Positions 5,640 through 61,249 are shown, counted from the first letter of the stretch. The stretch is DNA of 64,000 nucleotides from Cirrosporium novae-zelandiae (GCA_026023565.1 JAPETS010000064.1:1-64000); one strand, 5' to 3'. Program-made: numbers and translations. Notes: a model not told the origin generated them from the sequence alone.

Positions 5640-6816
5640 GCTCAGTGGGTCACATAAGCCCGTTCGGATGTGATTATACAGTGACTACTATAATCTAGTA
5701 TACCGTACCATATAGTATCCCAAAGCGGGAATCATCTATATCACTTGCTGCTGACCTCCACATTTTCCTATGGTATGTCCCATCTCCAAATCTCTTACCA
5801 TTCCGAGTTCATGACTAAGCCCTCTGCCAATAATCTCGAAGTGATTAAGACTTTTCCAGACTCATCATCTAGATTACCTCGAATGCGGTTGATATTGAAA
5901 TCTTTGCCGCTCTCCTAAAGGGTCAAAGTTGGGATCGATAAGTAGTGCACCTTAGACGCCACAAGTGCATATGATATAAAAATGCCTAATTTGTAGAGTC
6001 TATGATTGCACAAGACTAAAAGCTACCCTTCTCCTTCATCCCTCGATCTCCCTATAAGACATCCTTTGTCCCACCTATGACATACTTTCCCGAACTTCAT
6101 CCGTACCTCAAAGCATATTCCCCAAACTTCTCCCTTCTGTTTTTTCCCAAGGCATACTCCCCAATCCTATTCTCTGTGCGCCTGCTAAAATCGAAAAGTT
6201 ATTAAGCTTCTGGGCGAAGTCTCATCTTAGCCAATAAAATACATCTTTTTGGTTAGCCCTCGCGCCATCCCGTAGAGACAGGGACAAGGTCCCTAAAAAC
6301 GGAGAACTTCATGATCTACATGTACAGTGGAATGAAAAAATGAGGGGCCAAAATGAAAAGAAGTTAAAGGTTAGCTGACCATGGTGGCACAGCCTAATTA
6401 GATTCGTCATCTTTGGTGATGCATGAATCGCCCTTGACTTGATTAGGAACACCAAGTAATGTTTTGCTTTTCTATTCACCAAGCACATAAATAATTGCAT
6501 CTCTACTCTTCATAACTCACCAAGCACATAGTTTTAGTATTCTGAAGACTTAGATCATTATGAAAAATCCTGGTTGAAATGCCGTACTAACAATTATAGC
6601 ACTAAGTACTTGCGGTAAGAAACAAGGGTCAGATAGAGGTAGAATGAGATTCACAACAAGACAAACATTCCCTTAATTCAAGTAACGAATCCAATATTAA
6701 ATAGCAATGGAATCTAAAAACAAGTCTGGATGCTGGATGGTCATCATTAGATCCTCTGATTCTTGCGACAAAATCGATTTTCGTGATACTTCTTTTTAGT
6801 GGCCAGTATTTTCAGT

Positions 6817-8148
6817 ATGGGCGAAGTCTACCGGGACCAACGTCAGAATGAATTATTCTTCTTAACGATCGTGCTCCCCATGCTCGCTCTGTTCTTTGTT
6901 ATTCTACGATTTGCTGCTCGGTATGCAGGGTCCGTTCCTTACGGTTTCGATGACGGCTCAATTGTGATCGCGACAGTAAATGCTAAGCCTTATCACCTCC
7001 AGATTTACAGCATGTTAATCAAACACAGATCCTCTTGTTTGCAAATATGGCCATGAATCTTACATGTATCTCAACGGAAAATATATTATATCAACTCGAC
7101 GTGCTGACTTATAGAAGTGATTTATTATGGACTAGGTCGACATGCCGCTGAATTGGATATTCATCAATTAATTATGATAGGCAAGGTATTGATTGATTAA
7201 CTAGCATTGAATCCTTTCACAAAGCTTATTCTTAATCTAGATTCTGATGGCTTACGAATGCATCTATTGTACCACTGTTGGCATAATTAAACTATCGTCG
7301 CTCTTGATGTACCGTCGTATCTTGTCGGTTAAAAATATAAAAACTACTTTGAACATCATCGGGTTTTGCGTTGTTGCTTGGACAATATCCATCATCTGTG
7401 TCAGTATTTTTCGGTGTACACCTATCCAGAAAATTTGGGATCCGTCTCTTCCTGGTCACTGCATCAATCTTAAAGGGTCATTTATTGGAAACGGGATCCC
7501 GAACATTATCACGGATGTGATTATTCTGTCACTTCCAGGATACTATCTTTGGAACGTCCAGGCAGACAAGATCAGACGTATCCTGTTGACCTGTATTTTT
7601 ATATTGGGGGGCTTGTATGTTAATTGCCCTTGATTTACATATCTCATGAACTGACGTCTGCACATAGTGTCATTTTTGCTAGCGTCTACCGTTTTATTAC
7701 TCTCTTCCAATTTGATGAAGCTGATATATCATGTAAGCTTTTATCCCTCAGTTATATCGAGTGCTAGAACTGATCGACAAATTTCCAAGGGACTCTTGCC
7801 ACTGCCTGTACTTGGTGCGTTGTTGAGACAGCAACTGGAATCATCTGCACATGTTTACCCACTTTTCGTCCGCTTTTCCGCCTGTTATTCATGGGGTTTG
7901 GTCGTGGTAGAAGATCCTATGGAGCAACTGCAACCGGATCAAGGTTGGTTTTTCAACCCATCGACAGTTCGGGGTTGGGGTTTTTCCAGAGGGCCATCAA
8001 TAGCTCTAATCCAATGGCAGTCACATCTAGGGAACAAAAGGTAAATGTGGAATACGACGAAGAATCAGAGGATGAAATACCGCTGCATGCTATCAGGGTT
8101 ATAATGAAACATGGGGTAGAATGCACAATTCAAGGCCTGCAAACATAA
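6817..8148 (+). CDS. PTH11-like (fungal rhodopsin-domain) integral membrane protein, multi-intron
   Basis: LRFAAR..GFDD, GLGRH, IKLSSLLMYRRI, FRCTPI..W, NIITDVIILSLP, IFILGG and GIICTCLPTFRP spread over short exons. Confidence 0.85.
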
Positions 8149-8784
8149 AAGGTGTTTCGGATGAAGTGTGCCGCAAGGATAAATGTTATGTTCACCATAT
8201 TCACCATATGTGACATAGCGAGATAATTTTTTTGGCTGATACTTGAACCTCTGTAATCAATATCAGGGAATATACACAACACTTTGTAGGACTTGGGTAT
8301 ATAGTACTATTAGATCTATAAATATAGCACCTCGACAAAGCAGTTACCAAAAACAAGACCATACTCATAACCGCATATCTTTTATCCACAATTCGGTAGG
8401 CCAACCTCATTATTGTGCTTGAAGATGGCAAGGTTATACAAAAAAGTAATCACACCAATCTTCCGAGAGCTAAAGGAAAATACTATTTGCTGTTTCTTTG
8501 AATAGTATCCCCCACAGCTAAGGTTTTAACATCGTATGGTAGAGTAGATGCGCACACTCAACGAAGAATGCTGTTGTCAATAGCGAATAGAGAAATATGC
8601 AAAGCAATTGAGGTTTTGGACGGAAGATTACTATCAATAGAAAGGGGAATGGTATGCATATATATTCATGCGATGTAACAGTACGAATATAAATAGAATA
8701 GATGAAGCTGAATGGATCTAAAACACCTCGTGGGAAAAGCAACAAATAATAAAAAAAGCAAAAATCCCATAGCAATAGCTCCGA

Positions 8785-10157
8785 CTAGTCTTTCCGAATC
8801 ACTTCTATTACTCCTTCGCCCACCACAGGTGGATCGTAGAATTCAACAACCTCCAAGCCAGCTGATTGTAATAGTTCCCTCCACTCCTTTCGTGATCGTT
8901 CGTGGGATGCTGTTTGAACCATCATCATGATGCTCATTGCTGCATAGGCTAAAGGGCATTGCTTGTCTGGAAGAATAGACTCATTGATAATTAACTTCGA
9001 GTAACCAGGGGTCATGGCTGATGCAATATGGCGGAGTATTCTGCCTGCTTCCTGGTCTGACCAGTCATGAAGGATCCAATGAAGGAAAAACACCCGGGCG
9101 CCTGGTACATAAGATCAGATAATTTTCCTTGTAGAAAGAACTGATGTCTTACCTCGGACAGGTTGTGGGTCAAAGAAATTATGACTCATTGTTTCAATAC
9201 CCTCACTGAGATTAAGCGTGTCTATTGCATAAGAGAGGTCTTGCAGAATCAAACGCCCAGAATGAGGAAATCTTTTTTTGAACAATTCCAAATACTGTCC
9301 ATGTCCACCGCCGATGTCGACCAAAAGCGCATTATCACCTTTATTTTTATCAAAGCCGTCAAGGATTTGTGTTTGAACAGGGAACCACTCCAACCAATTT
9401 GGTTTTTGGATTTGATTGACGATCATCCAAGACTGAAAGGCTTTAGCTTGTTCAGGGTGTTCATTCAAATATTTGAAATAATCCAAATTCGTTTTAAGCG
9501 CATTCTGGAAAGGTGTATCTGTAGGCCCAGTTGGGTACTTGTATCCATTCAGTTCGAAATAATCGGGTGCTTCGTATGCGGTTTTCGCTCCAATATCATA
9601 ACTGAAATAACAAACGTTTAGCTTGTAGTCAATTGTGAGATATAACAGAATACCACTGACCATGCTTTCACAGCTCCTTCAATCGATGGTTTTATCATTT
9701 CCTGAGTGAGCATGGAAGATTTATACATTTCTTCATCACTCTCCATCACAAAACCTATAGCAGCCAGGACTCGCATTATCTGTTTGACGAGTCGTAAATC
9801 CGCGCCACACATAGCGGCTAGTTCGACAGTACTAATGCTTTTGTTGCCTCTTTTGGAAATAATGCGAAACAGATCCAGGCTTATACCAAGTCGAATGCAT
9901 GTGGGTTGAGGAGGAAACTTCCTCAGACAATATTAGTCTCTTCTTCTTTCTATGATTCGAAAAAAAAAGCTCACCATTAATTGCTGAATGATTGTTTCTT
10001 GGGGTGTTTGCAATGCTGTTGTTAATTTGCTAGAGATTTCCAAGACCTTTGAGCGTGAAAACTCATTGCTCCCAGCATTTGTTTCATACTCGACCGCCAT
10101 AGAACCGATCTCTTTCATCAAAGCTAGGACATATGTTTCATGCTCTGAAGAAGTCAT
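8785..10157 (-). CDS. SAM-dependent O-methyltransferase (secondary-metabolism type), multi-intron
   Basis: LLVDIGGGHG SAM motif, LILQDL, HNFFDPQPVRG, ILHDWSD, ERSRKEW; N-terminal dimerisation-like region. Confidence 0.9.
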
Positions 10158-11307
10158 AGCTGCTATCGAATAGTGAAAGAGATTAATGATAAGGCTAAAA
10201 AGGCAAGATACTAGAAAATAAGAACAATGTGTGATTTAAGTTAAAGACAGTCTTTATGAAGGGCATAAATAATATGGATGTGAGTGAAGAGTTTTTTACT
10301 TTAGTACTTCAGAATATATTGTCTCACGTGTTTGAATAGCTCAATAGGTACAGATTAAATCAGGTGTCTTGATCATGAGGTTTTAATGACTTTGATCACC
10401 TTACAAGTACCTCAAACAAATTAGCGTGTGGACCATGCAAGGGAATGACAAGTAGATCAGAAAAAAGTTTAGATTTACATGGTAGTAACTCTTAATTTGC
10501 CTACCTAGGTATAAGAATTCATGTTGCGTGCCTATATACAGTATTATGTCCATGTGTCCGGAGGTGCATAGCTAGTGGAGAAATTGATAAGTAGAATTAA
10601 GCAATGACTCGGCTGGTTTTTATGCCTTCTCGCTCGGTTATCGCTTAGCTACCAGCCGGCGTCTCCTGAATTCGAGTTTCGTTACGTGCTCCAGCTTAGC
10701 TGCGGTAGCTTGTAATTTAACGGTGGTCATGCCGTTCACTAACTTTGAACTATCTACAAAAGCTGTTGGCTATCTTCGGAAAGCCTTTCAGATTGATTGG
10801 CTGAGATAATTATTGCTAACAGATAATATTTTGAATTCACCAAGCACACTAATAACGGAATTGAAATTCACCAAGCACACCAGCAATTGGAATTGGGATT
10901 GAAACGCCTTGAAAATTCATCCTTGTCATTGATCTATTTTGTCACTAAGCATGCAACAATGCTTCAAGCCTCCTGAATGCTGATCCTTGTTATCGATTTC
11001 TTTTACAGCTACCAGTTCTATGAGAATCAGTAAATGCTCATTTAGTGATTATCAATGGAGTAATCAATATAAAGCGTCTTAGATTGGAAATAGAAATTTT
11101 AAGGCCCATAGACATTGTGTTTGCTGTGCCACGCAGTGACAGTACGTGATGACAGTAGGCTTCTTATCACATCTTTATTATTTATATTTTTCCTATACTC
11201 CTTCAGCTCTCATATCAGTGAATATCCTACCTGATCTAAGTCTATAATTTTTCCTCCTTTCAACATTCCTCATTTTTACCATTATAACAAGACTTTCATC
11301 TTTTATA

Positions 11308-12640: not shown

Positions 12641-13182
12641 CTGGTATTATAACGCTGCAGTACAGTCTAGGGGTTGGTTTATGTGTGAGAAGAAGAGTGG
12701 AAAAAAGGCAGTTGCGAAGATATACTCCATGGAATAAATTGTTTTTAGAGAGTTCTCCTTGGAAAGGATGTGCGGATATATTATGAAAGGATGTGGTAGG
12801 TAGGCTTGAAAGAATTTCGTAAGTTTTGCGGACTTTTTTGTAAAGGATATTTAATAAGACCAAAAACGGCCATGTATGTATCCAAGCTAATAAGTACGAT
12901 CGAAGGATACTTTTCCTAATTTTTGGGGGGTCACGCCTGAAGCGTTGCAATTCTCCTGCCTAAGGTCTCTTGTGCTTCCTAAAGTAATTCAAATCTTACT
13001 TGTCTCAAGATTTTCATTCTCAGCCAGTCTCCACCAGATAAATTGCTGAATTTTTTTTAAGATAGAAAAATAACTCAATTGTGAAATTCTATTGCTCGAA
13101 GCACAGTTATGGTTGGGGCCATCCTTGAGCCTGAGCATGTGAATTCTTGGCCAACACGTTTGCCTTTCATTACTCAATTCCT

Positions 13183-27789: not shown

Positions 27790-28456
27790 CTATATACATG
27801 GACTAGATGAGTCGCGTTCTCCCTGATTTCTCCTTAACTCTCCCAAGCTCGCTACCGATTGAGGGGATTCAGATTTTATTAATCCTTTTTCGTTATCCTT
27901 AGCCGCCGCCGGATTGGTATCAATTGGTTGTTTGACACGTTGTAACTCCTCATGGTACCACCGGTAGGCGCCTTGAAGCCGTTCGATTTCTCTTTTCATT
28001 TCTTCCGACTGTGCTTGTAGACTATTGTTCGCTTTCGTGAGCTCATCCACAAGTCGTCCATTTCTTTGCGCAACGTCATATGTTGTATCAAAAGCTGATT
28101 GAAGCTCCTCACGTTGACTATGCTCTATTTGGAGAGCGTTTCTGCATGCCTGATGTTCATATCGCTCAGATGCTAGGGCTTCTTTGCATAGAAAATGCTG
28201 ATGGCGCTCAGCACTTAGAGCCTGTTGGCAACAGGCGTGTCGAGCTATCTCCTGTTCTAGTTTCTTCTGGGAGACCTCTTTGGCTTTTTCAGCTTCATCC
28301 ACGTGTTGATAGAATTCCTTTAGAAAATCCCAATTGGAGGATTGATCGCCTCTAGTGTTTCTAGCAGGTGCCTTAATCCACGTCAACACTACACAGTATA
28401 CACCACGCAGTGTAAAGATATTGGAAACTTACAAGATTCCTCGTATTGTTCGGCAT
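27790..28456 (-). CDS. Hypothetical coiled-coil protein with repeated ER.xH..C..AL units
   Basis: 199-aa open exon with heptad character; short first exon MPNNTRNL followed by GTAAGT. Confidence 0.55.
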
Positions 28457-28725
28457 GTTGAACGACCTTTGGAGAGATCGATTTCGCTTTGACCGTGGTC
28501 TTCATTTATAAACACAGAACCTGGACGTTGAAGGTAGAGAATCATCACTTTTTTTGGCGAAGCATTCACCAAGCACACTTAGCTACTCACATGGCTGGGT
28601 GCTCGTGCTCATCATTATTTCAAGGATGCAAAATTGAAAGTCTTCCAAAGAGTAAAACTGTGCTCCACTTTCTTGTATGAGAAACACACCCAGACTATGC
28701 TATGTAACTATGTACGTATAATAGT

Positions 28726-29595
28726 CTACCAACATCTCTCACTGTCCGCAGGTCCATTACCTTGGCTGGAACCAAGTCTGTTTTGCTCTTCATGACACAT
28801 GAAGATATTCACTGGCAATATTTCCCCAGTCTCATCTGCATATTCCAACGAGCTCGGCTCTTCCAAGCCTAGTAGATTTTCGGTGGCTGAATCCAAGTTC
28901 AGGCTAGCAAGATCTATATTACTCCACGCTTGGAAAGCTCGAGGTTGAAGGTTAGAATTACCCCCAACCATTTCAATATTCTGAGATAATGTACTTTCCT
29001 CAGAATGTCCTTGGAATTTGGGACTCCAATCGGAAGGATACACATCGTTCATAGAACAAGGACCGACTTGCTGAAGAGTACTATTATAGGGCACGCAATT
29101 CATATATCCCTCGGAGAACAAGTTACTAGACATGCTGGCACCAATATTGTCATTCTTCAGAAACCACCCTTCGTCTCTGACGGCTTGTGGGAACTCGATA
29201 CGAATACTGCTGTCGAACGAAATGGCTTTCCGACTTGGCATTTGTGTCACAGGAAGTTCCATAAGTGTTATCAAGTCGTTAAGCGCCGCTTCCTCGGAAA
29301 TTGGAGATGGTTCGGCAAGTATCGAGGAGGAAGGTATTGGGACCTCTTCAGAAGGTGGTGACTCTGGGGGTGTGGAAGGATTGGCACCCCCTAAATGAGG
29401 ATCGAGGGCTACTCCTGCGGCGGATTCAAGCAACGCTTTACACTTTTTTATTACAGCATCCTCGGTTCTTGGTCGTTCTAGATGAACTATATTGTATCTT
29501 CTTGATAGTTCTGACCATTTTTCATTTGGAAATTTTTGTCTCAGTTGTATAAGGTATGTCTTTTCGTCGTCATTCCATTTTCCATAGGATGGCAT
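28726..29595 (-). CDS. Myb/SANT-like helix-turn-helix protein with acidic Pro/Ser-rich tail
   Basis: KWNDDEKTYLIQLR..KWSELSRRYN..RTEDAVIKK Trp spacing resembles a Myb-like repeat. Confidence 0.65.
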   Translation of the reverse strand: MPSYGKWNDDEKTYLIQLRQKFPNEKWSELSRRYNIVHLERPRTEDAVIKKCKALLESAAGVALDPHLGGANPSTPPESPPSEEVPIPSSSILAEPSPISEEAALNDLITLMELPVTQMPSRKAISFDSSIRIEFPQAVRDEGWFLKNDNIGASMSSNLFSEGYMNCVPYNSTLQQVGPCSMNDVYPSDWSPKFQGHSEESTLSQNIEMVGGNSNLQPRAFQAWSNIDLASLNLDSATENLLGLEEPSSLEYADETGEILPVNIFMCHEEQNRLGSSQGNGPADSERCW

Positions 29596-31259
29596 GATTT
29601 CTAGCTGGGCGATATAGAACAAAATGGAAGGTATAGATGACCAAGTATCCTGAGGTGGTCATGAGAAAAGAAATTTGTTAATAGATAAGGGGTATCAAAT
29701 AATCGATATGTGATCACTAGCATGCATACATATATCAACAAAGCCTAATATTATTGAGGCCTCAACTCCAGGAGCAGTCCTTGACATGAATTATCTATCC
29801 AAAATCTTACCTCTTAGGCATGATACACAAGTTAGTAGCTCGCCAATTCGTATATGTGATTGGCTTAAAGATGTAATGAAGCTCTAACTCGGGTTCTATG
29901 GGCTCAACGACTTGTTGAGAGCACAGGCCCAGGTTCCGGCAGATTTTCAGGTGATCCATTACTCCATCCAATCGGAATCTATCAGCGTTTAGCGTTGGTT
30001 TAAGAAATCACTACCCCCCAATTCCTTTTTTGGGCGGCTATTTGAGACCACTCGGTTTTAACATCCGTGCTGGAAAGGTATATGGCGGGAAAAATCCTTG
30101 ACCAAATTCTATTGCGGTCACTAGAAGCGGGCACAACTAATTTGATATAAATTATGCCAAGGCCCCTAGATTATCATCGCTCGAGCGCTAATTAAATATT
30201 GCATAACATTCTTAGTCAGTTAAAAGTTTAAATCAAAAGCTGCTACGAGTCAATGTATAAACTTGAGTGTGAAAAACTAGTATAGAACCTTACAATCTCG
30301 GGCTGTGAAAGACAGTCGGTCCGGCTTACGCCAAACGAACTACACAAGCAAAACTCTCCAGGAACAATCCATTCGATATATTACACCCTATTTGCATACT
30401 CTAGTTATCTTCTTACACGTAACCTATAATTCTAAGACTGCCACCACAGTCTTACATTACGTCAGCGTTTAGAGAGGATCCTCCCATGAGGTTGTAGAGC
30501 CCATGTAAAATTGGTGTGGTAGGTAACTATTCTTTAGCCTTAATAAACGCGTTACAATGCTCGGTCAATTTTATGGGCAAAACTATTTGTATTATGTCGG
30601 TTGATCTTCATGGTATATCGAAAATATAACCAACTCCATCATAGCACTAATGAGAGATACGGCTCGGTTATTTTTTGTTCTAAACCACAATCAATTTATT
30701 ACATGCTCTAGCAGCAGCCTTTTGACGATAAGCCAAAGATTTTGCTTTCTTTTTCGGCCCTAGCGCTAAAGCTCAACTTATCCGCGGTTTGTTTCCTGCA
30801 TATCATAGTTACGGAAAGCTCCCCCCGAGATCTTGAGGCTTTTTCCTTGTAGGCACGGTCCATAAAGCTCTCAACGGTGAAAGTAGCTTCCATCGACAAA
30901 GTGGATATCCGTCGGGGGCATACCTCAAGTGTCCGCGAGCTACTAGGAAACATTTACCCTCTAACTCAAGTTAGCATACTCAGCGAAAAAAGGTCAAAGG
31001 AATAGCACTAACTCACCAACTAACTTCTTTTCAAATATGAGAACATATCCTATCTCCTTGTATAGCTTTAGAGAAGGCATCCAGAACCTATTAGTTTTCT
31101 TTTTACGATGTAACTTCGGCAGTTCTGATTTCCATAGAATTCGGCGAGCACCAAATTTCTATCTCCCAAGAAAATCTTTTTATAATTTATCAATCCTATA
31201 GATATATTTGATACGTCCTCTCAACGGAATTGGACGCCGTTTTAGGTGTAAAGAGCAGC

Positions 31260-31843
31260 ATGGACGATTTTTTGCAAAGATTTGCTTCAGAGGGTTTCTC
31301 TGAGGGACAATTACCCACCCTTGATTTCTTGGAACCGCAGGACAACCCTGAGATCCAAACTCATGACCAAGATGGGTTAAGTAGGAACGGGACTAATCCC
31401 AATGTTCAGCAGTGGATAAATGAATGGAGTCAACCCTTTCCACTACTGGATAAACAAGAATCGATTCCCAATGACCCAGGTCAGTCTATTCAGTTAGAAT
31501 CCATGCAATCCCAAGATATGATTCGGATCTATGGAGAGCTCGAGCAGCTTCGCAAGCAGATGGAGGAGCTCCACGAACAGGTGGAACGAATGAAGAGAAA
31601 GTAGGTACAGTTTCAACATTCAAAATTCCTTTGGGTATTAACTTTTGTATACAGGCTTCAAGAGGAGTCACAGTAATATACGTCATCTTTTTATAGGAGT
31701 AAAAGTTGATTGGAAGTAGGAAAACCGAACAATATTTCAAAGAGCTGTTACCCTGGACCCTAAATATCAAACGGGCACTGATGGACCTGATGGAATATGT
31801 TAAGAAGCTTTCCATTGATTCCGAAAATAGACGATCAGGATAG
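31260..31843 (+). CDS. Small hypothetical coiled-coil protein (2 introns)
   Basis: MDDFLQRF..ELEQLRKQMEELHEQVERMKR exon; GT-AG introns lead to KTEQYFKELLPW..RRSG*. Confidence 0.5.
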
Positions 31844-32032
31844 TTTAGAATCCATAGTTACGGTAGAAACTACCAACCAAGGCATGCCTGTTAAATGGTT
31901 GCAATGATGGCGTGAGCTGGAATTTCAGGGTTAGAAAACGGGGAGCCTGCTAAATCCTCAATCTAAGTTCTCCCCTATTTAGTTTCCAAAGATCCCCGAG
32001 ACGCTGGATTAAAACTTATCGAACCTAGTGAC

Positions 32033-32451
32033 ATGATGGCGCCGTGGAGTTCAATTGAAACCATTATCATTGTATTCTTTGCATCCCGCAATGTGTCCCA
32101 TGCGGCTTGTGCAGAGCTTTTGAAAAGGCGGGTTCCTGATTCCGAACATACAACCATTGGAATTCGAAGCAAGCTTACCCATCTTCGAGTTCAACGAGCG
32201 TCCCAGCTCTACAATCTGACGAAGAAGTCTTGGACAGGCGAAGACGTGGACGCATTGAAGTCAGAAATGAGTGCGGAAGATTTAGAGAAAGCTCAGCTCC
32301 GGTTTGATGAAGCAGATAGAGAGATTATCAAAAAGGTATTTGGGACATTCAATACATCTAGACCATGCATAAAATTTGTCTGACTGTTGACCTATAGTAT
32401 CGGAATAGCAAGAATGTGCAAATGGAAGAAGAGGGATTCGAGAAATTTTAA
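32033..32451 (+). CDS. Small hypothetical protein (possible HTH-like)
   Basis: MAPWSSIETIIIVFFASRNVSHAACAELLKRR..; one intron (32336-32397) then YRNSK..EKF*. Confidence 0.5.
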
Positions 32452-32466
32452 AAAATCGCTTTACTT

Positions 32467-33605
32467 TCACAGAGCCAATAGCTTCCAGTCGCGGTGTGCG
32501 GACAGTATAGTAGTGTGAACATGTGGCCGCAAGCTCTGCGGCCCAGGGGACTTTTTCAGAAATAGGCTTGACTAGAGCAGAGTTATCAACATGGAAAGGG
32601 AGAAGAAGGTGAAAAGGTTTCGTACTTCAAGAAGTTTTTGAGGTGAAGTGGATTTGGTTTGGATGAGGAAGTCCTGTGCTTCGGAGGACCACCTCTCAGG
32701 ATTCTTAAGACATAGTAATTTTAATCTCTCTTGGTCGGCATCTACTTCCATCATCTGTAAAGCCAGCCGACCGAGATCCTGAAGGTCTTTTGTTGAAGAA
32801 ATGGAAACATATCTTTTGTATAGCATACTGTCGCCAACATTCGCTATATCAACAACTTTAGTGCTCTGGAAGTTTTTGGAAAACTTTAAAGACATTACCG
32901 ATCTTAATATCACTGGAAGTGGAAAAAAGTATATTATTAGGTTGGATAGAACCATGTGTACAATGAAGGATGTCGTGAAGATAGCAAATGCCATTCAAGA
33001 CCTAGGCGAGTTAGTTCCGCTCTAGAGAAAAACAAATAAATTGATCCTACCTCGGAACAAATCGCTGCAATATGATGTTCTTCTAGACTCAACGGGCAAG
33101 CAATGATATCAGATAGAGAGATATACATGTCTCGATATTCATAAATAATGGCAACAGAACCATTATAAATATATATATCAAGCAAGGTCAAAATATTAGG
33201 GTGACATGGCTTTTTGAAAGATACCAACTCTCCTTTATTAATATGGGTGGAACTTTTCTTAATGGCCACAATTTCAAATGACGGGTCTTTCCGATGAGCG
33301 AGAACAATTGGGTCATCACAATCCAATTCAAGATACTCTTGATAATCATCAAAGGGATTTCTTGCTTTCCAATTGAGAGATTGTGTAGGCCTTTCGACTG
33401 AATTCTCGACCTTCGGCTTTTCCGGCAACGGCAACTGAAACGGACGTGGACTTCTTTGGCTCTGAACATGTGGCTGGCCTCCTTTGTGTAACTTAGAAGT
33501 ATTGTGGGGCTCGTTGATCTGTAGCTTCATGGGTGGTTCATTTCTACTCCCTGAATTGATAGGATAATTATTTCTAGGGAACAATGTCATGCGTGACGAA
33601 CTCAT
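32467..33605 (-). CDS. Divergent protein-kinase-fold protein (probable pseudokinase), multi-intron
   Basis: VAIK, HPNILTL, IAAICSEVLNGICYLH present; HRD replaced by THG and DFG by ANVG. Confidence 0.7.
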
Positions 33606-33872
33606 GGCTAATAATTTATATAGAGGAAGTTTGATGTCGAGAGACTCGACCATTTTTTTTTTCGTGGTGCAGGTACAAGTATAGGCGTTTCCCTCATAGG
33701 GAGGTTCAATCCAAGGGGCCCTCAACCTTGATACTCCCACCATTTTTCCCCTGAGCCATCAAAATGTTGTAGGCCCGACACTTTCTAAGTCCATGTTGTC
33801 TATAAATGAACCAAAAATGAATTTCAGATCTTTCAACCCTTCAATATATTTTTTCCAGAACCATCGAAGGTC

Positions 33873-34340
33873 ATGGAACCCCAAAAGTTAGATATGAAGC
33901 ATATGAAAGCCAAACCGCCGGAAGTCAACCTCCTCGATCATCTCATCAGTCTACGCGATGGCTCCACCTCAGCTCTGGAAATAGCCAACCACCGACTACG
34001 AGCGGCCAAAAAACATCCACCATCAAGTGCGAAGCAATGGCTTGAAGAGGTCACAAAGGAACTTGGTCATCTACGTCTAGAAGTCAGCTTCTACCGAAGA
34101 TGCTTTGATTTGTCACAACAGTTCCGAGATGATGTTTATCAGCTTGCGCAAAAGATTGAGGTCGCATATTACTTTGAGGAAAAGGGAATGGCTGCAGAGA
34201 TTGGATATGAATATGCACTTGCGTTGAATGATAAAGTTGAATGGTTTGCGGATAAACAAACCAGAGCAGAGTATGAATGGCTTAATTTCTGGAATGTATC
34301 AAATATGGACATTCAGACAGCAGCTATTCATCAAATCTGA
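33873..34340 (+). CDS. Hypothetical helical protein, divergent from the kinase-like gene
   Basis: 155-aa ATG-initiated ORF with coiled-coil-like ELGHLRLEVSFYR segment. Confidence 0.55.
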   Translation: MEPQKLDMKHMKAKPPEVNLLDHLISLRDGSTSALEIANHRLRAAKKHPPSSAKQWLEEVTKELGHLRLEVSFYRRCFDLSQQFRDDVYQLAQKIEVAYYFEEKGMAAEIGYEYALALNDKVEWFADKQTRAEYEWLNFWNVSNMDIQTAAIHQI

Positions 34341-35238
34341 TACCTGTGTTGTGACCGCATTGTATGTCTTACTTATTATTGACGTTGGAGATTCCCAATA
34401 CTCTAGCATCGTCTGGATCAGCTTTTCTATCAACATCTCCCTTGATATATTTTCATTGCAGCGTGAGAGTGTTATGAATTTCCCTGAACCATATGCTGCT
34501 GCCTTAGACATTTACGTTTGAATGAAATAAGACTCATTTGTCGGCCTCCTCACCACTACCCACCAATTTCCCACTGGATGTATGTATCAGATAGTATTGA
34601 TGAATCTTAACTGTATTTTTCAACTAGCAGATAGACTATAGATATCTATCATTCCAGTCGCCTCTCATTCAGGGACATCTAGATCATATTGCCGTTAAAA
34701 ATGCATCATGATCAAGATAATAATACTGACCGGACTTCTTCCTTTGATTCTTGGGCTTTCGTTTACTAGGTTTCTATTGATGTGTTCAGCTGATTACAGC
34801 TCTCTGGAGTTTCCCAAATAGTGGAGTTGTATGTTAACTCAAGTATACAAGTGTATTCTATTCCGTTATCCAACAGACAGGTAATATTCAAAAATAATAT
34901 AGATTGAAAGAATTTTATTATCAGGACCAAATTTTCTAGATCTTAATATCCAAGAAACTTAATTTATTAAGAACTAGAAAGTGCGTTCTATAACAGGAGA
35001 CTTCGTCATGAAAAAGAATGATCTCGCCGAACAAGAAAAGGCCAAGCACGTAAGAATTTCCGCCAACAACGATAAGATTCACCAAGCACAGGTACAGTTC
35101 AAATTTAAAAGATCCTCTCTGACTTACTAAAATCTTTGGCACATTCAAAATTAAACACAGCGACACTCAAACGTAGATAGTAACATATTGACTGAAAGAA
35201 CTGACGAGAATAAAAAGAATTTTCAGGCTAATTGTTTA

Positions 35239-37075
35239 TCACGGTCGACTGCTTCGGAGCTCAATAGCTTTCTCCGACATTTCTCCTTGACACCAGTAAT
35301 CCAATTCCGATGATAACGGTCGCGGTCTGGTAGGAGGATGGAAATCTAATTGGACAAGGCGTAGATTGCTATCCATTTCACTCGTGACACAATTTTTGAT
35401 TATATCATTTATGACCTCATCTGTGCATGCTATTCATGAATTAGTGACACAAATTTTGAGCCACTTTGGAATATTATACACAAACTTGAGACAAGAGTTT
35501 TTCCTTTTCGGTTGGTAATTTCATCTTTCAGAATTTCACCAACTTTCGCAGGGGCGTATATGGTACGAATTCTATTGTGGTACCCATGAGAAACGACCTC
35601 AGCAAAATATCTCGGGACAAGATAGTCCCCTAACACATAGAGAGATATTTTGAGGATCTATAAGACACATTAGAATAACCACAAAGCTGCTGCTCGGGAT
35701 CTCATACACGGTCAGTATCAGCTTGTAACACTTCATCCATCCATTCGCTGACCCATTCTTGATGACCTGAGATAAATTTCAGTGATGGAAGACAGTTTTT
35801 GAGATTGAAAGCGTTATTTACATTCTTTGTCAAGTTGCCAGACAAGTATGATATATCGAGTCCGAACTACACGATTATTATAGCCGTGCACAAGTTCTTT
35901 CAGATAAGGCAAATGGCCCGCAATTCCGATACCAGTTGCAAACATGATGATTGTACCGAAAGAACCGAAATCGTGAGATACTCCATAGGGTCCATCAATG
36001 ATGGTCAGTGGCAACTGGTCTCGGTATCTCAAAAGTCGAGCGGTAAAGCCTTTTCGGCATTGAACCAAGCAAGCAATCTGTAGACTGTTGCCCTCGCCTT
36101 GGTTCCACCAAATCACCATGAAAGGGTGGTTTTGAAAAGCTCCCCAGAAGCCAACTCCTGGCATACACAATAGCACATATTGCCCCGCTCTAACATTCCA
36201 TTCCCTAGGAACGGCCAAGGTAATTTTTAAAGCATCAGCATCAGTAGAAGAAATTCTGGCCCTTGCAAAAGGCCTATGAGATAAAAGGTTCCTGAAAATC
36301 AATATACCCCAGTGAACAACCGTTGAGCAGGACCAGAAACCGATACCACCAAGCAGAAATACCATGTTTATCCCTTTTTTCTGTCGATTGTATCGCCAAA
36401 GAGCGACAATGGTGATAATAGAGAGCACCATATGACATTGGAGGAAGATCTCATAGGCGAATCTTCGGAAGAAAGCTAAGGATATAACACCTATCAACAG
36501 CATAGCAGAACCACTCTAATAAATATATATATTAGCCTCAGTAAATAGAATCGTAGAAAAAAAACATAAAAGAATCACTGTACTATTATAATATTTGCCG
36601 AATGCCAATTCAGTGAGGGGTTACTCAGTAGATAAAGGACAGTGCGGAGAATTCCTTGGAAGATGGCTACTCTACCAATCCATTTATGTATGATCATAAA
36701 GTTGTCGAGAGAAATTCCCAAACAATTCGAGATGAGATGAAGCCGTGATCCGGTGAGAAGAGGGATTAAATTGATCGTGGACAGTAAACTTGCTCTGTCC
36801 GCGAGCTGATTTTTCGAACTTACTCGAATAATCATGCATACGATATTCGTTACAAGATATGTCACAATACCAAGCGAGCGAAATCGAGTACAAGTTCGAA
36901 CCAGTCGAGCACGTGAGAAAAGGTTGGGATAGAAAAGATGCTTTAAAAACAAGAAAGCGAGAAAAAGTCCGATCCATAAAAAAAGCCGAATGAGCAGGCG
37001 TAGAAGAATCCAGAGGATGAATATTCCACAGAGAAAAATTCCGTACCAGACAGTCACGTCCATTTCGATAGGCAT
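35239..37075 (-). CDS. Ferric reductase-like transmembrane flavoprotein (Starship FRE type), multi-intron
   Basis: HKWIGR, AGQYV, QNHPF (FAD), DGPYG, FATGIGIA (NADPH), LVWQ, C-terminal LDFHP. Confidence 0.88.
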
Positions 37076-37314
37076 TGTGCTTTCCAAAGCAAGGCTTGAC
37101 AGAACGCCCAGATGTCTTAAGAAGTAGCCTAGTTGCTCTATGCATCTTGAGGGGGGTTCATTTCAGGGGGGGGGGGGGAGGAGCTCAGTCAAAGGAAGGC
37201 CGTTCTTTCAGCCGACGGATATCGCCGTGGTTGGTGAATTAAGACGTACCATATTAATATCGAGCATTCGATTAAAAGGGCAAATTATTATGTCCGTTAC
37301 GCATACATTTCATC

Positions 37315-37871
37315 ATGAATATATCTAAAGAAACGAATAAACCAAACGATTTCAAGAAATCTAATAGGGCTTTGAATGAACAATTTCGCAAACGCCGAAA
37401 TAACTTTTTAAAGAAGGCAAACGATATCGCAAGAATTTCAGATGCCAAGGTCTATGTGATCATTGAAAAGAAAGGTCGATTAATAATTTACAACTCTGAA
37501 GACCCATCATCATGGCCACCAAAAGAAAATGATCTTGTGAGTTTTTTTTTTGGCTCAGAGATTAAGAATCTTTCACTAATTGTATCAAGAGACGATATTA
37601 TCCTTTGCCAGTTCGCAAGAGCCCTGCAGATTTTAATCTTAAGTCGCTCTCGAAAATTAAAATTCGAAGTCCCCCGGTTCCAGGTTGTTTTTCTTCACCT
37701 AAGTCACCATCTATAGTAAGCGATGATGGAACATCTACTGAGAAGGCCCTGTTTCCTTTGATCAAAGTAGAGAGTCCACCGATGATGGTCATGGAACACT
37801 CTTCAACCAAAAATCGAACTCAAGGTCCAGAAGATACACCAGAAGGAACAGACAGTTGTATTTGGACATAG
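37315..37871 (+). CDS. MADS-box (SRF-type) domain protein, 1 intron
   Basis: QFRKRRNNFLKKANDIARISDAKVYVII matches the MADS core F.KR..GL.KKA.EL...C.A.V..II; followed by WPP; divergent from FRE. Confidence 0.75.
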
Positions 37872-38699
37872 TTTGGTTTTTATATAGTTTTTTTGCTTGC
37901 TTTCTTCTTTAGACAACATGAAAGAAACAGCACACGCAAATAATCGAATTTCTGGTCTTATGAGCCCCTTATTTTTTTATTTCCCAATTTTTTAAGTACC
38001 ATTCAAGCCTACAAGGTCTTTCATAGCATCTAGATTAATCTTTATCCATCAGTCCGCGACTCTCAAATAGCTTAACTGGTGCTTCAGACACGAATATCCA
38101 ATGTAGCGCGACCTTCCCACCATTACTATCGGGGATAGATATCAAAGAATAACATTGATTACTCTGACAATCTTAGATATACAATATCGAACACCCTTTG
38201 TACGAAAGAAATGTAAATCTTCATTCTCATTATCAAGATGGAAATTGTATTTTACGTGACTCTTGTATCCTTTTTCTTTACTGAACCTCCAAACCCACGA
38301 CATTCAACCTGTCTATATCTGAAAATACCAAATGAACTGGATGCCACAGATCTTTGAGAGACTAAAATGTGGGAAATAACTAAAAACTAATTTCTACTAT
38401 TAATTATTAGGGCCCTACAAAATATTAAAACTCAATTCCTGGACACCCTCAAGTAACGTGGCCCTCCAACTCTGGGGCCCCTCAAATAACGATGCTGATA
38501 ACCAATTTCTAGACCATTTCAATTAGTAGTGCCCTCCAAATAAGCGTGCCCTCCAAATAAGCATGCTGGCCTTCGAGTTGTGCTGGCCCTCCAATTATGC
38601 CGATTAGCTGTTAAAGATTTTCCCGATTGAACCTGCGCATTTGGAATATTATAAAAATCAAGATTATCAATATGAGGATCCATTATCAAACCAACTACC

Positions 38700-39929
38700 A
38701 TGGCTCCTAACAACTTCCCAGAGAAGAAATTGAAACCAGAAATTCACAAAGCACGAGAAAAAACAATCAAACGAAAAGAGGAACACAACGCTCGTAAAAA
38801 GAGAATCGAGGAAAATTTACGCAATGCTTCGAGCGACGAAGAACGGCAGAAGCTTGAACAGGAGAAGAAAAACCTGGAGGAGGATACGATGGAGCTGGAC
38901 AATAATGAGGAATTGCCTGGAGAGCCTGAACATGATCAAACGGATAAAGGTGACGTGATCACCGAAGAAATTGTTTCACCACCTGTGCCAGAGATAGCTA
39001 TTACGGATGCCGAGAACGGAACCGCCTCATTGCCACTAGATATTGACGAGAATGACGATCATGACCCAGAGACTTTACTCACTCCAGGAGCATTTCGGAA
39101 ACGTCTAGGATTGGATCATGGCGGATACGTTGTGGCCAAAAGGGAGATTGGACGGAGAGTGCAGTTGCTTCTGGAATACGGTCCACCAAACGCCTCCATG
39201 TTTAGGTTTAAGGGTGCTGCAGACGTCGACACTACTTACGATGAAGAGAAAATTCCTGATATTACCGACCCAGAGAACAGAAGGGGACATCTGAGAGTAC
39301 GAAAAAAGTGGACATACACCAGTAAAGACGTTGCAGCTATTCAAGGGGTTGTGTGGATATTTAATGAGGAGTCTGGAAAAGAACCTCTAGATCTATTGGA
39401 TCCCGACATGATGGCCGAGGACAAAATGCACAATCCAGGGACAAAATATCCACATACCTACGTTAAAATTAAGTGGACCGACGGGGAAAAGACTTGGGAA
39501 CCTCGAGCCAATTTCGTACGAGTCTGGGGAAAATCGAAAAAGGCAGCCGATAAAGCGATTTTCATGGCAGCGGAGTACCAAGAAAAGAGATATAAAGAAT
39601 ACTGTAATAATCAACGCCCACCAGAAGACCGATCTCCAACACCAAATCCAGATATTCTGAGAGTGAAACGAGAAGACTCGGTCGACGGGCTTCCGGAAGA
39701 ACAAAGGAGCAAAAAAGGGACAAAAACCGGAACTCAAGCTCCCGATGAATCTAGTAGTGGAGAGGAAATTTCTGAACCTATACCCAAGCTTCATGATGTG
39801 ACGTTATTCAGAACAAACTGGTGCAAAGTGAAACACAAAGATCCTGAAAATCTTTCCGATCTTGATGAAGCAACCGTGTTAGCAACATGGGAGCTTGCCC
39901 AGCAAATATCGGCTACATTGAAGGTTTAA
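38700..39929 (+). CDS. Hypothetical charged protein with a chromo-like segment
   Basis: 409-aa intronless ORF; N-terminal coiled coil; YVKIKWTDGEKTWEPRAN resembles the chromodomain Y.VKW..TWEP motif. Confidence 0.65.
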   Translation: MAPNNFPEKKLKPEIHKAREKTIKRKEEHNARKKRIEENLRNASSDEERQKLEQEKKNLEEDTMELDNNEELPGEPEHDQTDKGDVITEEIVSPPVPEIAITDAENGTASLPLDIDENDDHDPETLLTPGAFRKRLGLDHGGYVVAKREIGRRVQLLLEYGPPNASMFRFKGAADVDTTYDEEKIPDITDPENRRGHLRVRKKWTYTSKDVAAIQGVVWIFNEESGKEPLDLLDPDMMAEDKMHNPGTKYPHTYVKIKWTDGEKTWEPRANFVRVWGKSKKAADKAIFMAAEYQEKRYKEYCNNQRPPEDRSPTPNPDILRVKREDSVDGLPEEQRSKKGTKTGTQAPDESSSGEEISEPIPKLHDVTLFRTNWCKVKHKDPENLSDLDEATVLATWELAQQISATLKV

Positions 39930-40090
39930 AGATTGATCGAGACTATTTCAGCGAATTTCATTGAATATGTTTTGCACTGTTGCACGTACTTTTTCCAAAT
40001 GAGTTTTTTTTTATTTCTAGTGTTTGATAGCCGCCACTCAATGTTAAAAAATATTAGTCTAGGTGAAAAGCATAAATTTGTCTATCTCTT

Positions 40091-40207
40091 TTTGTTATTT
40101 TGTGTAAAGATAATAAATTAAAACTATGAAAATTATCCTAATTATACTATCTAGTCTTGGCACGGAATCTTCCGGAACATCATTGCAACCCCTGTAGAAA
40201 ACCACAT
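40091..40207 (+). repeat. ~115-bp non-coding element, copy 1
   Basis: TTTG(T/C)TATTTTGTGTAA...TACTATCTAGTCTTGGCACGGAATCTTCCGGAACATCATT aligns with 43315-43428 (-) and 47293-47409 (+). Confidence 0.85.
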
Positions 40208-40629
40208 TCTGAAGCCGTATTATAGATCACCAAGAAGATCTAATCTGATACGGAAAAAAACACCATGCTTAGTCAGAAGCTGGAACCCGATCCGGATCAT
40301 CCTGACCACAGCGCAAGGTAGTTAGTCACAGGTTTAGACTAGACTATCCCTTGTTATATGAGGCTAAGAGCCTTGTACAACCATAGTAACATAATTAATC
40401 AGCCACTACGATCATAATAAAACTAAAAGATTATGCATAAGGTTATGAATTGGATGACTTAAAGATATAAGGTCATATTAGCACCATTGAAAAGCTGTAT
40501 ACATCTAGAGGGTTGTGAAAAAACTTAATAGAATAAATCAATCAATCAATATTTTTCTAAAAGCTAGTTCTAGCCTTATTCCTAATTCATGATACCTTCA
40601 TTTACTTGCCAATTATCAAGCTCACCGAG

Positions 40630-41147
40630 CTAGATAGGCCTTCCCCGCGGTCTATCTCGTTTCTCAAAGTCTTCAATTAACTCTGGAGAATTCTTGAAAT
40701 GACTTGCTGGCATCCATTTCGATTCAACTAGGGAATACTGCTGGACAAGGTATTGCTGAATTATTTTTCCTTCAACTCTTTTCTCTCTCTTATCTACAAT
40801 TTCGGCAATCCATTCATTATCATCGAAAAATCCTCCATCGCTGATATCCTGTCAATATTAAGTGTTATAAGAAAAGCCTATACCAGAAGAATCTAGCACA
40901 CTCACCGGAACCGGTTCACCCTCTGAGCTGGTATTATCCATCTGACTATCCAATATGAAATCTGCCAATGAGGATTCCGGACTTTCACAATCTTTTTGCA
41001 TATAAGCTATCTGGAATGAAAGATGACGAAACATCCGAACTCACATTCTCCGGATGGTTCTTGAGAATTGCCCTTGCACATTTCTGGGGGGAGCAAATAT
41101 GGAGAATCGCCGAGAACTACGTGCGTGTCTTTGATATTTGAATTCAT
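40630..41147 (-). CDS. Small chromodomain-like protein A with C-terminal AT-hook-like RPRGRP
   Basis: Last exon 40848-40630 reads DISDGGFFDDNEWIAEIVDKREKRVEGKIIQQYLVQQYSLVESKWMPASHFKNSPELIEDFEKRDRPRGRPI*. Middle exon has ESPESSLADFILD. First exon is tentative because it needs a 38-nt intron. Confidence 0.7.
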
Positions 41148-41703
41148 TCAGTACGATTGGATGTGTGGCGACTGAAGAGGGGAAAGGGGGACATTCGTTA
41201 ATAGTAATTAGTGACAAGTAAGATCTGCTGGCAAGCCTGGTCTTAAAAGTAGAAAAATGATTCACCAAGCATAGAAACAATGCGATAATCTGTGTATCGA
41301 CGAATATTACAGACATGATTCGGGTCTACTATTTTTAGGGTAGGCAGATGACAACAAGTATTAACCAAGGATAGAGGGTTCTGGAACGATATTTCTCAAT
41401 AATTTACTAAGCACAATATTCCTGGTGACTTAAAAGTTAACCAAGCATAAGCATGGTAGAATAGATAGAAAGCTACCTCATTCATAGGGTAAAAAGATAT
41501 TTCACGGTTCTAGATTAGGCCCATCGAATTGTAAAGATTTTTGTAACTTCACCAAGCACTATAGTTTTGACAAGGATGCAACAGTCGTTAGCCGGTATTG
41601 GCCAAGTATAAGGCTCCAACATTCACGAGACCTTTCACAGTTCAGAGCACCAATCCTTGCTGGTTCCCTTGAACAATGGTTCGAGCTGAAAGAGACCAGA
41701 AAT

Positions 41704-42054
41704 CAGTGTTGGCAATAGACTAGACCAAATAGACGGTCTACCATAGACGGTCTATAGACCTTAGACCGACCAGACGAAGCTTTTAGATAGACCAGACCGA
41801 CAAGACCGAGCTTTTTGATAGACCGACCAGACCTTAATTGTCCAAGGTCTATTCGGTCTATATAAATACGAATTATAAGGTGGGGGGTATATTTTTGTAT
41901 TATGAAGTTTGTTAGGGCATCGGAGCTCGGTATTTTATTTTATCTTATCTCCACGTGATATCACGTGGAGATAAGATAGTATGGTGAATCGAGATTCAAA
42001 ATTTCTGTCCACGCTCCGCGCGGATTATATTATCCGGGTGTCATGCCAACACTG
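41704..42054. mobile_element. Non-autonomous hAT-like element (MITE), 351 bp
   Basis: 11-bp TIR CAGTGTTGGCA / TGCCAACACTG; perfect 8-bp TSD CCAGAAAT at 41696-41703 and 42055-42062; subterminal AGAC(C) repeats. Confidence 0.92.
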
Positions 42055-42244
42055 CCAGAAATCAATTGTTACTTGGAATCAAAAAAATTGAAATGATATT
42101 AATAGTGTGATGAACAGTCTATATGAAGGAGTGGGGTTGAAATTAAAGAAATCCTCATTGCCATAATCAATGATCCCAGCAACTCTTCCTAGATGCAAAA
42201 GCTTATCCTGCATTCAACTAGCTTAGAGCCCGCAATTTTTGTTA

Positions 42245-42833
42245 CTACCATTCGCTATTTCGTGGCCAGAGCTGACGCTTTTGAGACCTTCCTCGCAGGC
42301 TACTCCGCCTTTCGAAATCTTCAATCAACTCTTGAGCATTATTTAGTTGACTTGCCGGCATCCAAGTATTTTCCCACACAACTAGGTATTCCTGGATCAC
42401 TGCTTCTCTCGCCCTAACATTCCTTTTGTCAATGATTTTTGAAATCGGCCATTCGTCTGCGGTAGATTTTTCTTGATTGTTCTGACACAGTTAGCATCAT
42501 CGAATACGACTGAAATATAAAACTCACTGTTAGTAGTCCAGTTTCGTCTATAGAACTTTCTCCTTCGTCATCGAGCATAAAATCCGATATATCGGATTGC
42601 GGGCTTTCGTCTATTTGTGTAGACGGGCTACCTTTGATCAATGTAAGCAATAGGTTGAATAAAACCGTAACTCATCAACACTAACTTTGGTTACTTGATT
42701 CCTCGGCTTCCAGAAAAGTATGGGCACGGATTCTCTGTTGGCGTTCTCTGATTGGAGCGGTTGAAGATTCAGAGTAGATACTGTCGAGTTTTTGCACGGA
42801 TGCACCAATAGTATCATGATTTTGGGATGTCAT
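42245..42833 (-). CDS. Small chromodomain protein B (162 aa, 3 exons)
   Basis: Exons 42833-42686, 42631-42528 and 42481-42245 splice in frame at GT-AG sites. Last exon: DEWPISKIIDKRNVRAREAVIQEYLVVWENTWMPASQLNNAQELIEDFERR. Confidence 0.82.
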
Positions 42834-43314
42834 AATGTTTGATGGAACATACAAAATAATAATAATGTTGTTAGATGATCAATGAAGACCAAGAAAAGAC
42901 ATCAGTATATATTTGATATGTGAGGGACTCCGAATCGTTTAACTTCATTATTGAATCCACCAAGCACACCGATCCTTTTCCGAAAGAGGTTGTAAATATT
43001 CACCAAGCACAAGGGTAAAGGGTCTGACGGGCCCCTCAAATTCGCTTAGCCAGTCGAAAAGACTTGTCAATGTTCCATAAGCTATCCCCGGCTTTATCGT
43101 ACAGCGACAACGAAGGCCTCTATTTGTATAAGCTAACTTAATGAAGGAAATAGAAGTATACTTTTCAGATAACCAAAATTGAAAAGCTGGACGATTATCG
43201 ATTAGTACGCGGAGCGGATATCGGAATCCGCTCATTAGGAGAAAGCGCCACAGCTTCCTTTCAAGGCTAAGCTATCCGCTTAGCGACCAGATAACGAGTA
43301 GCAGCAAAAACTAC

Positions 43315-58750: not shown

Positions 58751-58755
58751 ATAAC

Positions 58756-61230: not shown

Positions 61231-61249
61231 ATTAAATTAATTATTAAAT

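Follow-up and report, generated by a model that had tools for sequence, protein, structure and literature searches.

Homotypic clusters of transcription factor (TF) sites in the promoters of physically linked genes are known from pathway- or cluster-specific regulons in fungi. In bacteria, the FtsK-orienting polar sequences (KOPS; GGGNAGGG) guide FtsK to XerCD/dif; these are frequent, occur in genic as well as intergenic DNA, switch strand at dif and are read by a translocase. The attC sites of integrons are imperfect, foldable inverted repeats, one at each cassette end. For Harbinger/PIF transposons, a passage of PMC9710019 (citing Sinzelle et al. 2008) describes a Myb-like partner protein that binds a 9-bp subterminal motif, and the authors of 10.1101/2024.06.28.601215, where they discuss the Tardis repeat CTACGGAGTA, suspect that it is a TF site. 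Here we describe a 14-bp word, ATTCACCAAGCACA, which recurs in six non-coding clusters of a Starship-like region of Cirrosporium novae-zelandiae. The region was analysed as one stretch of 64,000 nucleotides (GCA_026023565.1 JAPETS010000064.1:1-64000; hereafter the window), and all positions are counted from its first base.

The closest match in kind is the homotypic TF-site cluster common to linked genes. Like the sites of such clusters, our word is short, non-coding and over-represented, is repeated in promoters and is common to unrelated neighbours as well as to diverged paralogues; it differs in being 14 bp long (about 19 bits), non-palindromic and unusually invariant, in keeping one orientation, in having a candidate binder only, in that one cluster lies outside a promoter, and in its Starship-like host region. 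With KOPS it shares the nature of a strand-biased oligomer on DNA that also carries a tyrosine-recombinase system. However, KOPS occur irrespective of coding status, whereas all strong copies here are non-coding and gathered in six clusters; moreover, no translocase gene was seen in the scans of open reading frames (ORFs), and the reverse relatives of the word show no clean switch of strand. A Harbinger element combines a recombinase, a Myb/SANT-type protein and a short repeated non-coding word, as this region may do, but its sites are subterminal, whereas the copies described here span 36 kb of the interior (6.5-43 kb) and the Myb-like domain is sub-threshold. Near the captain end, i.e. the end next to the tyrosine-recombinase gene, there are only a 17-mer variant at 53807 and a chance-level look-alike at 54012. 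The Tardis repeat is also a short, highly over-represented, Starship-linked word and a suspected TF site; it is an insertion-site repeat at element ends that was counted genome-wide, whereas our copies are internal, clustered and oriented. Integron attC arrays resemble the locus in that a tyrosine recombinase stands beside unrelated genes separated by a recurring one-way site. In contrast to attC sites, these are hairpin-free direct repeats (the repeat finder detected no inverted repeat at the sites that would allow attC-like folding), several gene boundaries lack a site and some gaps hold up to five. Thus, KOPS, Harbinger subterminal sites, attC arrays and dispersed repeats each fail in at least one testable defining feature.

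Excess, layout and placement of the 14-bp word

The 12-mer TTCACCAAGCAC occurs in seven exact copies, all on the plus strand (starts 6475, 10836, 10867, 28565, 35078, 41548 and 42999), whereas 100 dinucleotide-preserving shuffles gave 0.01 copies on average and none gave seven. These are the very positions listed in a sequence-only reading of this DNA that preceded our analysis. Allowing one mismatch yielded 13 matches against 0.10 expected, 11 on plus and two on minus, and recovered the three one-mismatch copies of that reading (6516, 41261 and 42956); with up to two mismatches to a 13-mer there were 16 matches (1.31 expected), 14 of them on plus. The core sub-words CACCAAGCAC and CCAAGCAC are wholly confined to plus (9:0 and 10:0). 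An alignment of 12 copies extended the word to ATTCACCAAGCACA, that is, TTCACCAAGCAC with an A on either side: 14 positions are informative, giving about 19 bits, while the sequence outside them is uninformative and the flanks of the copies are unrelated. The family comprises six letter-perfect 14-mers and six to seven near copies, about 13 in all. A position weight matrix (PWM) scan returned 12 strong plus-strand matches and, on both strands together, 17 matches above 11 bits against 2.2 per block shuffle. Within bases 1-54000 no k-mer (k = 8-12) is more over-represented than the word and its sub-words, and a 12-mer with four copies was never reached in 30 third-order Markov simulations. The recurrence of the word is therefore real and statistically very strong, and over-representation beyond chance is what is expected of a TF binding site. 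Among the weaker copies that had been proposed, those at 41403 and 41437 held up, whereas the one near 10941 matches at 9 of 14 positions and lies under the PWM threshold. The claim that no exact reverse copy exists was also right, but two one-mismatch reverse copies (37227 and 53808) had been overlooked.

Within clusters, all seven neighbouring pairs of scored copies are arranged head-to-tail, and the three pairs noted beforehand at 31-43 bp were verified, with separations of 41, 31 and 43 bp. Coordinates are collected in the table below. The start codons used there and throughout are inferred ones, each supported ORF being taken to begin at its first Met codon; support means Pfam matches plus a simple coding-potential score. 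A first Pfam scan covered 38 of 48 ORFs of at least 120 aa, with overlapping antisense ORFs omitted, and a second covered 94 of 239 ORFs of at least 60 aa; further scans of 22 ORFs (relaxed) and 39 ORFs bring the total to 193 ORF scans. About 53% of the region is coding-like, yet none of 15 plus-strand copies and neither of the two reverse relatives lies inside coding-like sequence. Five of the six clusters, all but cluster 4, precede an inferred ATG by 19-680 bp. On our own inferred gene models, non-coding placement mostly within promoter range is thus what is expected of a TF site.

The earlier statement that all copies are intergenic agrees with this ORF map but not with a deposited 483-aa model, in which 28565 lies in a 354-nt intron joining the Myb/SANT-like ORF to the coiled-coil ORF (27793-29595, minus). 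An exhaustive profile search found seven stand-alone relatives of the coiled-coil part only (155-258 aa), all beginning just before a conserved SxWDFL (SxWDFLxxFY) motif. Since the coiled-coil relatives stand alone, we think the fusion doubtful and read the model as two genes, with cluster 3 flanking the coiled-coil gene on its 5′ side.

Two pairs of paralogues share the word. Protein identity is 25-34% within the Fung_rhodopsin pair and 52% between the chromodomains, and in the chromodomain pair the nearest copy lies 113 and 122 bp upstream of the ATG. Sensitive self-BLAST detected no DNA similarity between the paralogue promoters besides the word. Thus, within this locus, the 14-mer is common to the promoters of both pairs despite diverged surroundings. 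As the paralogues are old and their promoters otherwise dissimilar, the word has either been maintained or been gained independently, and either course would point to function.

The sequence-only reading had also raised the case that all copies might be remnants of one small repeat, which our data do not bear out. The repeat finder grouped the copies solely via the 14-mer (family D4, 69-76% over 29 nt) and found no longer family, and sensitive self-BLAST revealed no similarity between the cluster regions. Furthermore, contigs of the probable source run were placed on 27501-47500, which covers clusters 3-6, and depth was read in 667-base bins. Five of the seven bins overlapping these clusters are at the baseline of 361-365. 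Bin 41508-42174, with a depth of 9931 (about 27-fold), holds the last cluster 5 copy (41547) together with a repeat resembling a miniature inverted-repeat transposable element (MITE), and bin 42842-43508, with a depth of 637, holds cluster 6 and a copy of a 95-nt repeat; known repeats outside those two bins reach 3154. Judged by flanks, self-BLAST and depth, the copies show neither the similarity into the flanks nor the multi-copy state of a dispersed repeat or MITE remnant.

In the most likely reading, which we hold at little better than even odds, the copies of ATTCACCAAGCACA are cis-acting binding sites for one sequence-specific protein that co-regulates the neighbouring genes. From the sequence we infer that one DNA-binding protein, probably a multimer, would bind head-to-tail copies about 31-43 bp apart, and that its binding in the six non-coding gaps would co-ordinate expression of the flanking genes. 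The regulated set would comprise the two Fung_rhodopsin-domain membrane proteins, the O-methyltransferase, the small coiled-coil protein, the two chromodomain proteins and the gene starting at 43480.

Table. Copies and relatives of the word, and two genes discussed with them; ATG positions are inferred
Feature	Coordinates	Strand	Composition	Position and remarks
Cluster 1	6474..6528	+	head-to-tail pair of ATTCACCAAGCACA (6474) and ACTCACCAAGCACA (6515), spaced 41 bp	upstream of a Fung_rhodopsin-domain gene (+, ATG 6817), at 343 and 302 bp
Cluster 2	10835..10953	+	exact 14-mers at 10835 and 10866, 31 bp apart; weak third at 10940-10953 (9/14)	divergent gap between O-methyltransferase gene (-, ATG 10157), 678 bp upstream, and second Fung_rhodopsin gene (+, ATG 11308), 442-473 bp upstream
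Cluster 3	28564..28577	+	one exact 14-mer	between Myb/SANT-like ORF 28729-29595 (-) and coiled-coil ORF 27793-28428 (-)
Cluster 4	35040..35090	+	exact 14-mer at 35077; partial copy GGCCAAGCACG at 35040 (35040-35050)	
Cluster 5	41260..41560	+	five head-to-tail copies at 41260, 41360, 41402, 41436 and 41547, four of them degenerate	113-400 bp upstream of ATG 41147 of chromodomain gene A (-)
Cluster 6	42955..43011	+	ATCCACCAAGCACA (42955) and exact 14-mer (42998), spaced 43 bp	upstream of chromodomain gene B (-, ATG 42833), at 122 and 165 bp, and of an ATG at 43480 (+), at 525 and 482 bp
Near copy	38742..38755	+	ATTCACAAAGCACG, one mismatch	within 5′ part of long ORF 38676-39929; probably chance
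17-mer copy	37226..37242	-	TTAATTCACCAACCACG	151-167 bp upstream of ferric reductase ATG 37075 (-); 73-89 bp upstream of MADS-box ATG 37315 (+)
17-mer copy	53807..53823	-	TTAATTCACCAACCACG	328-344 bp upstream of captain ATG 53479 (-); about 200-250 bp inside GC/AT boundary
Look-alike	54012..54024	+	ATTCACAAACACA, gapped and degenerate	edge of AT-rich flank
Myb/SANT-like ORF	28729..29595	-		candidate binder; weak N-terminal domain
DUF3435 tyrosine-recombinase ('captain') gene	51114..53518	-	four ORF pieces	sets polarity of the element

An opposite-strand 17-mer and candidate binders

Both one-mismatch reverse copies are the same variant, TTCACCAACCAC, in which C replaces the invariant G of the main word, and at both places an identical 17-mer, TTAATTCACCAACCACG, is found on the minus strand. 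One copy sits between the divergent ferric reductase (FRE) and MADS-box genes, which are a short distance apart, and the other lies upstream of the captain. These positions make TTAATTCACCAACCACG a possible control element common to Starship core genes (captain, FRE/MADS), and it would probably tie them to the same factor as the main word or to a paralogous one. GC content is 38-44% from position 1 to about 54.0 kb and 15-20% from 54 kb on; this boundary is taken as the captain-side end of the element, the only end within view, the other one lying beyond the window. The look-alike ATTCACAAACACA at the boundary may be due to chance, since look-alikes of its grade arise 1.3 times per shuffle on average.

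A candidate for the binding protein is encoded by the element itself. In the relaxed Pfam scan, ORF 28726-29658 gave a weak Myb match, which concerns the first 85 residues of the Myb-like ORF (Myb_DNA-bind_6, E = 0.0016, 19.1 bits against a cut-off of 22.9 bits). For this N-terminus, the only remote relative has several clear Myb repeats, and structure neighbours in an atlas are Myb or helix-turn-helix proteins at TM scores of 0.56-0.65, to be taken as leads only. A homologue search with the Myb-like ORF returned nothing but the window's own deposited protein P0003, recorded as hypothetical, and a PDB sequence search gave a weak match to the coiled-coil part only. On this sequence evidence, the weak Myb/SANT-like protein, although the most attractive of the candidates, is a conceivable but rather unlikely binder of the word. 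Passages of PMC12256816 describe MYB/SANT genes as structurally conserved in Starships, compare them with the Myb-like partner of Harbinger, and place them at the edge opposite the captain and in opposite sense. Our Myb-like gene shares the sense of the captain and lies in the middle of the region, so we do not file it in that family.

Two other proteins of the region were considered and set aside. The C2H2 gene (561-1773, plus) encodes four fingers, with introns between fingers. In all four, position -1 is Q and position +3 is Q or N, and by the finger recognition rules this combination leads to A-rich triplets. Its fingers thus predict A-rich DNA unlike ATTCACCAAGCACA, which by this inference makes the C2H2 protein a poor candidate. 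The MADS protein was rejected because CArG boxes occur solely at 2541 and 30024, neither of them near a cluster.

Proposed co-regulation and competing explanations

Several points weigh against co-regulation through a common binding protein. With six of 13 copies letter-perfect over 14 bp, the set is unusually uniform for TF sites, and one orientation in six clusters (P = 0.03 if these are independent) is not predicted by a plain enhancer-type site. Around cluster 4, no coding sequence can be recognised over 1.5 kb between ORF 33810-34337 (plus) and the FRE ORFs (minus), a gap of the 3′-3′ type with no evident promoter and no recognisable gene to regulate; of 60 small ORFs around it and downstream of 43480, 39 were scanned and none matched a family. 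Distance within promoter range is weak evidence, as non-coding DNA here is largely promoter-proximal anyway, and the ATGs were deduced from first Met codons of ORFs, not from transcripts. The Myb assignment of the candidate binder is sub-threshold, and its single-sequence AlphaFold2 model (mean pLDDT 63.9) gave no Foldseek match at E <= 0.001, SANT/Myb entries among rows with E > 1 not being counted. Finally, no related locus was found in sequencing runs or in a metagenome scan. Three runs searched at 80% likeness, one of them probably the source itself, yielded no second copy or relative of the region, the other two giving one and two short partial pieces less than 90% alike. The metagenome scan for pairs of the 11-mer core returned at least 127 loci. 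None of the 127 listed matched the window by BLAST at E <= 1e-5; by counts for all 127 and by inspection of 12 by eye, they are unrelated tandem repeats, many in high-GC contigs.

The orientation of the word gave rise to the main rival. All six clusters are on plus, the flanking genes are on both strands and the word faces the nearest gene in both senses, so that the independence from gene strand noted at the outset is borne out by our gene map. As an element-level polar or architectural signal, the word would be bound by the Myb/SANT-like protein, in the manner of a Harbinger partner, or by the captain, and its common direction would orient or assemble the transposition machinery or set one-way barriers to replication or loop extrusion over tens of kb. 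This is quite unlikely in our judgement, and we give no better prospects to a Starship-intrinsic version. In the latter, the Myb/SANT-like protein, possibly with the adjoining coiled-coil protein, would bind the pairs, interior sites would point one way relative to the captain end, whose promoter would be marked by the opposite variant, and such an array would gather or orient the long element for the recombinase, or switch captain, FRE/MADS and cargo on together at mobilisation. A polar signal would account for 12-13 strong copies keeping to plus whatever the strand of the genes. It would also suit the reverse relatives, which are a distinct variant with one copy just inside the captain-side boundary, where a polarity switch is expected, and the look-alike at the boundary itself, which however is within chance. 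Moreover, MYB/SANT genes are conserved in Starships and likened to Harbinger in the passages cited above (PMC12256816), and the Myb-like protein of Harbinger3_DR is described as binding the 9-bp subterminal motif (PMC9710019). Against this, the other copy of TTAATTCACCAACCACG, at 37226, stands amid plus clusters at 35.1 and 41.3 kb and breaks a simple switch; counting both 17-mers as members of the family, the split is 6:2. The copies extend over 36 kb instead of being subterminal, our Myb-like gene lacks the published layout at the far edge and in opposite sense, and no translocase-type domain was found in the 193 ORF scans of the window. Strict avoidance of coding sequence is needless for a guide motif and typical of regulatory sites. 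Furthermore, the number of independent loci is small: six one-way loci give a two-sided P of 0.031 if independent, and four, if each paralogue pair inherited its promoter, give 0.125. The constant direction is therefore less remarkable than at first look, and we read it as partly inherited and partly due to chance. Of the two readings offered beforehand, the binding site uniting a regulon is the one that fits non-coding placement, head-to-tail clusters, promoter distances and apparent retention in paralogues, whereas the KOPS-like role had uniform orientation as its sole basis and is unsupported. We keep it at low weight because a uniform orientation over both gene strands is not predicted by an enhancer-type site.

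The degenerate copies of cluster 5 bear on another rival, namely that the words are functionless relics left by local duplications or by a small dispersed repeat. Here, CpA-to-TpA changes account for four of the five scored deviations from the consensus; such changes are the signature of repeat-induced point mutation, and because of this signature the copies look like decaying ones. The pair 10835/10866 shows some likeness in its spacers (GGAATTG...ATTGAAA after each copy), and it may be a local 31-bp duplication. Nevertheless, the flanks are unrelated past the 14 positions and no longer repeat family exists, five of seven bins over clusters 3-6 are at baseline depth while true repeats nearby reach 9- to 27-fold, and six letter-perfect copies amid diverged surroundings would not be left by a 14-bp relic; hence we regard a neutral origin as highly improbable. 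It is also very unlikely that the word is a landing pad, either a preferred integration target, of the direct-repeat type, of some Starship captain or a genome-wide host motif that captains exploit, with internal copies as potential nesting sites. The Aspergillus fumigatus precedent, the 10-bp Tardis direct repeat CTACGGAGTA that 10.1101/2024.06.28.601215 reports as over-represented genome-wide, speaks for such a role, as does the degenerate look-alike at the GC/AT boundary of the element; but the boundary copy is gapped and at chance level, no insertion was seen at any copy, and pairs 31-43 bp apart or five copies in 300 bp are unexpected of a target site. Strict strand specificity would, lastly, fit a signal on plus-strand transcripts, such as a small-RNA target or a processing signal. 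However, no Rfam family and no tRNA was found in the window, and clusters 3, 5 and 6 at least would need unannotated plus-strand transcripts because the neighbouring genes are on both strands, so that this explanation is exceedingly improbable in our view.

Two further words occur on the plus strand only, CAAAATTGAAA in four copies (14822, 20255, 28629 and 43174) and AATTCTATTG in five (13085, 30105, 35568, 44622 and 47870). Their counts are above those in Markov simulations, some copies are inside coding sequence, and neither word has a fixed position relative to ATTCACCAAGCACA. Their one-sidedness was favoured by choosing words on a single-strand count.

The Starship-like setting and significance of the word

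The Pfam scans support a Starship-like gene set, with DUF3435 near one end and typical accessory genes. DUF3435 was matched in three ORF pieces at 51114-53082 (minus; E = 2.7e-37, 3.5e-35 and 1.7e-12) and DUF3723 at E = 2.5e-68. Among ORFs of at least 120 aa, further matches were to patatin (weak), ferric reductase, an SRF-type MADS box, a FunK1 kinase, the two Fung_rhodopsin-domain genes and an RSN1/CSC1 channel; the scan of ORFs of at least 60 aa added the four-finger C2H2 gene, the O-methyltransferase and the two small chromodomain genes. The assumption of a Starship in the sequence-only reading is thus backed by domain matches (DUF3435, DUF3723, ferric reductase, weak patatin and MADS). 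In another Starship, a MADS-box gene is described next to freB and DUF3723 (10.1101/2024.06.28.601215), which agrees with our suggestion, by analogy, that the FRE/MADS pair is a recurrent module.

The ferric reductase gene (35242-37162, minus) carries Ferric_reduct and FAD_binding_8 domains, while an NAD-binding domain was found in no downstream ORF; the gene may be truncated or very divergent. The chromodomain genes (40633-41147 and 42248-42833, both minus) lie in a row, with the Pfam Chromo match at 42248-42490 above the cut-off and that at 40633-40851 below it. By eye, a chromodomain-like stretch, YVKIKWTDGEKTWEP, is also present in a third, larger ORF (38676-39929, plus). Both chromodomain genes and clusters 5 and 6 are bracketed by inverted copies of the 95-nt repeat (40090-40184, plus; 43335-43429, minus), which has a third copy at 47293-47387 (plus); the three are about 80-82% alike and at about 9-fold depth. 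The MITE-like insert spans 41704-42045 (about 27-fold depth). A 31-bp tandem repeat (41754-41833) lies inside it, as does a perfect 38-bp palindrome (41941-41978), and in the source run many contigs stop or are joined there. Farther on, 45169-47500 is multi-copy at about 3- to 6-fold depth and includes a C1/PHD-like ORF (45305-46405), one other copy differing mainly by transitions. A minus-strand ORF without family contains a tandem array with a 54-bp unit (2258-2527; about 4-5 copies, 76-80% matches). In the window, no tRNA was found and no Rfam family reached the gathering threshold. The final 10 kb (54000-64000; 15-20% GC) form a flank whose start lies about 570 bp upstream of the inferred captain ATG.

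A literature search at title level, together with passages of Starship papers, found no report of the word or of a Starship-wide regulatory motif. To our knowledge, nothing is known about the regulation of Starship captains and cargo, or about how ends that are tens to hundreds of kb apart meet. Our analysis offers two mutable sequences for such questions, the 14-bp word common to at least seven cargo-type genes and the 17-mer common to the captain and FRE/MADS promoters. As the Tardis precedent shows, a genome-wide count would be the decisive datum. A host-wide word would be an ordinary promoter element that just happens to be frequent in this region, and the finding would gain much only if the word belonged to the element alone and kept one direction relative to the captain. 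If it is element-specific, the word would represent the first cis-regulatory code described for a Starship.

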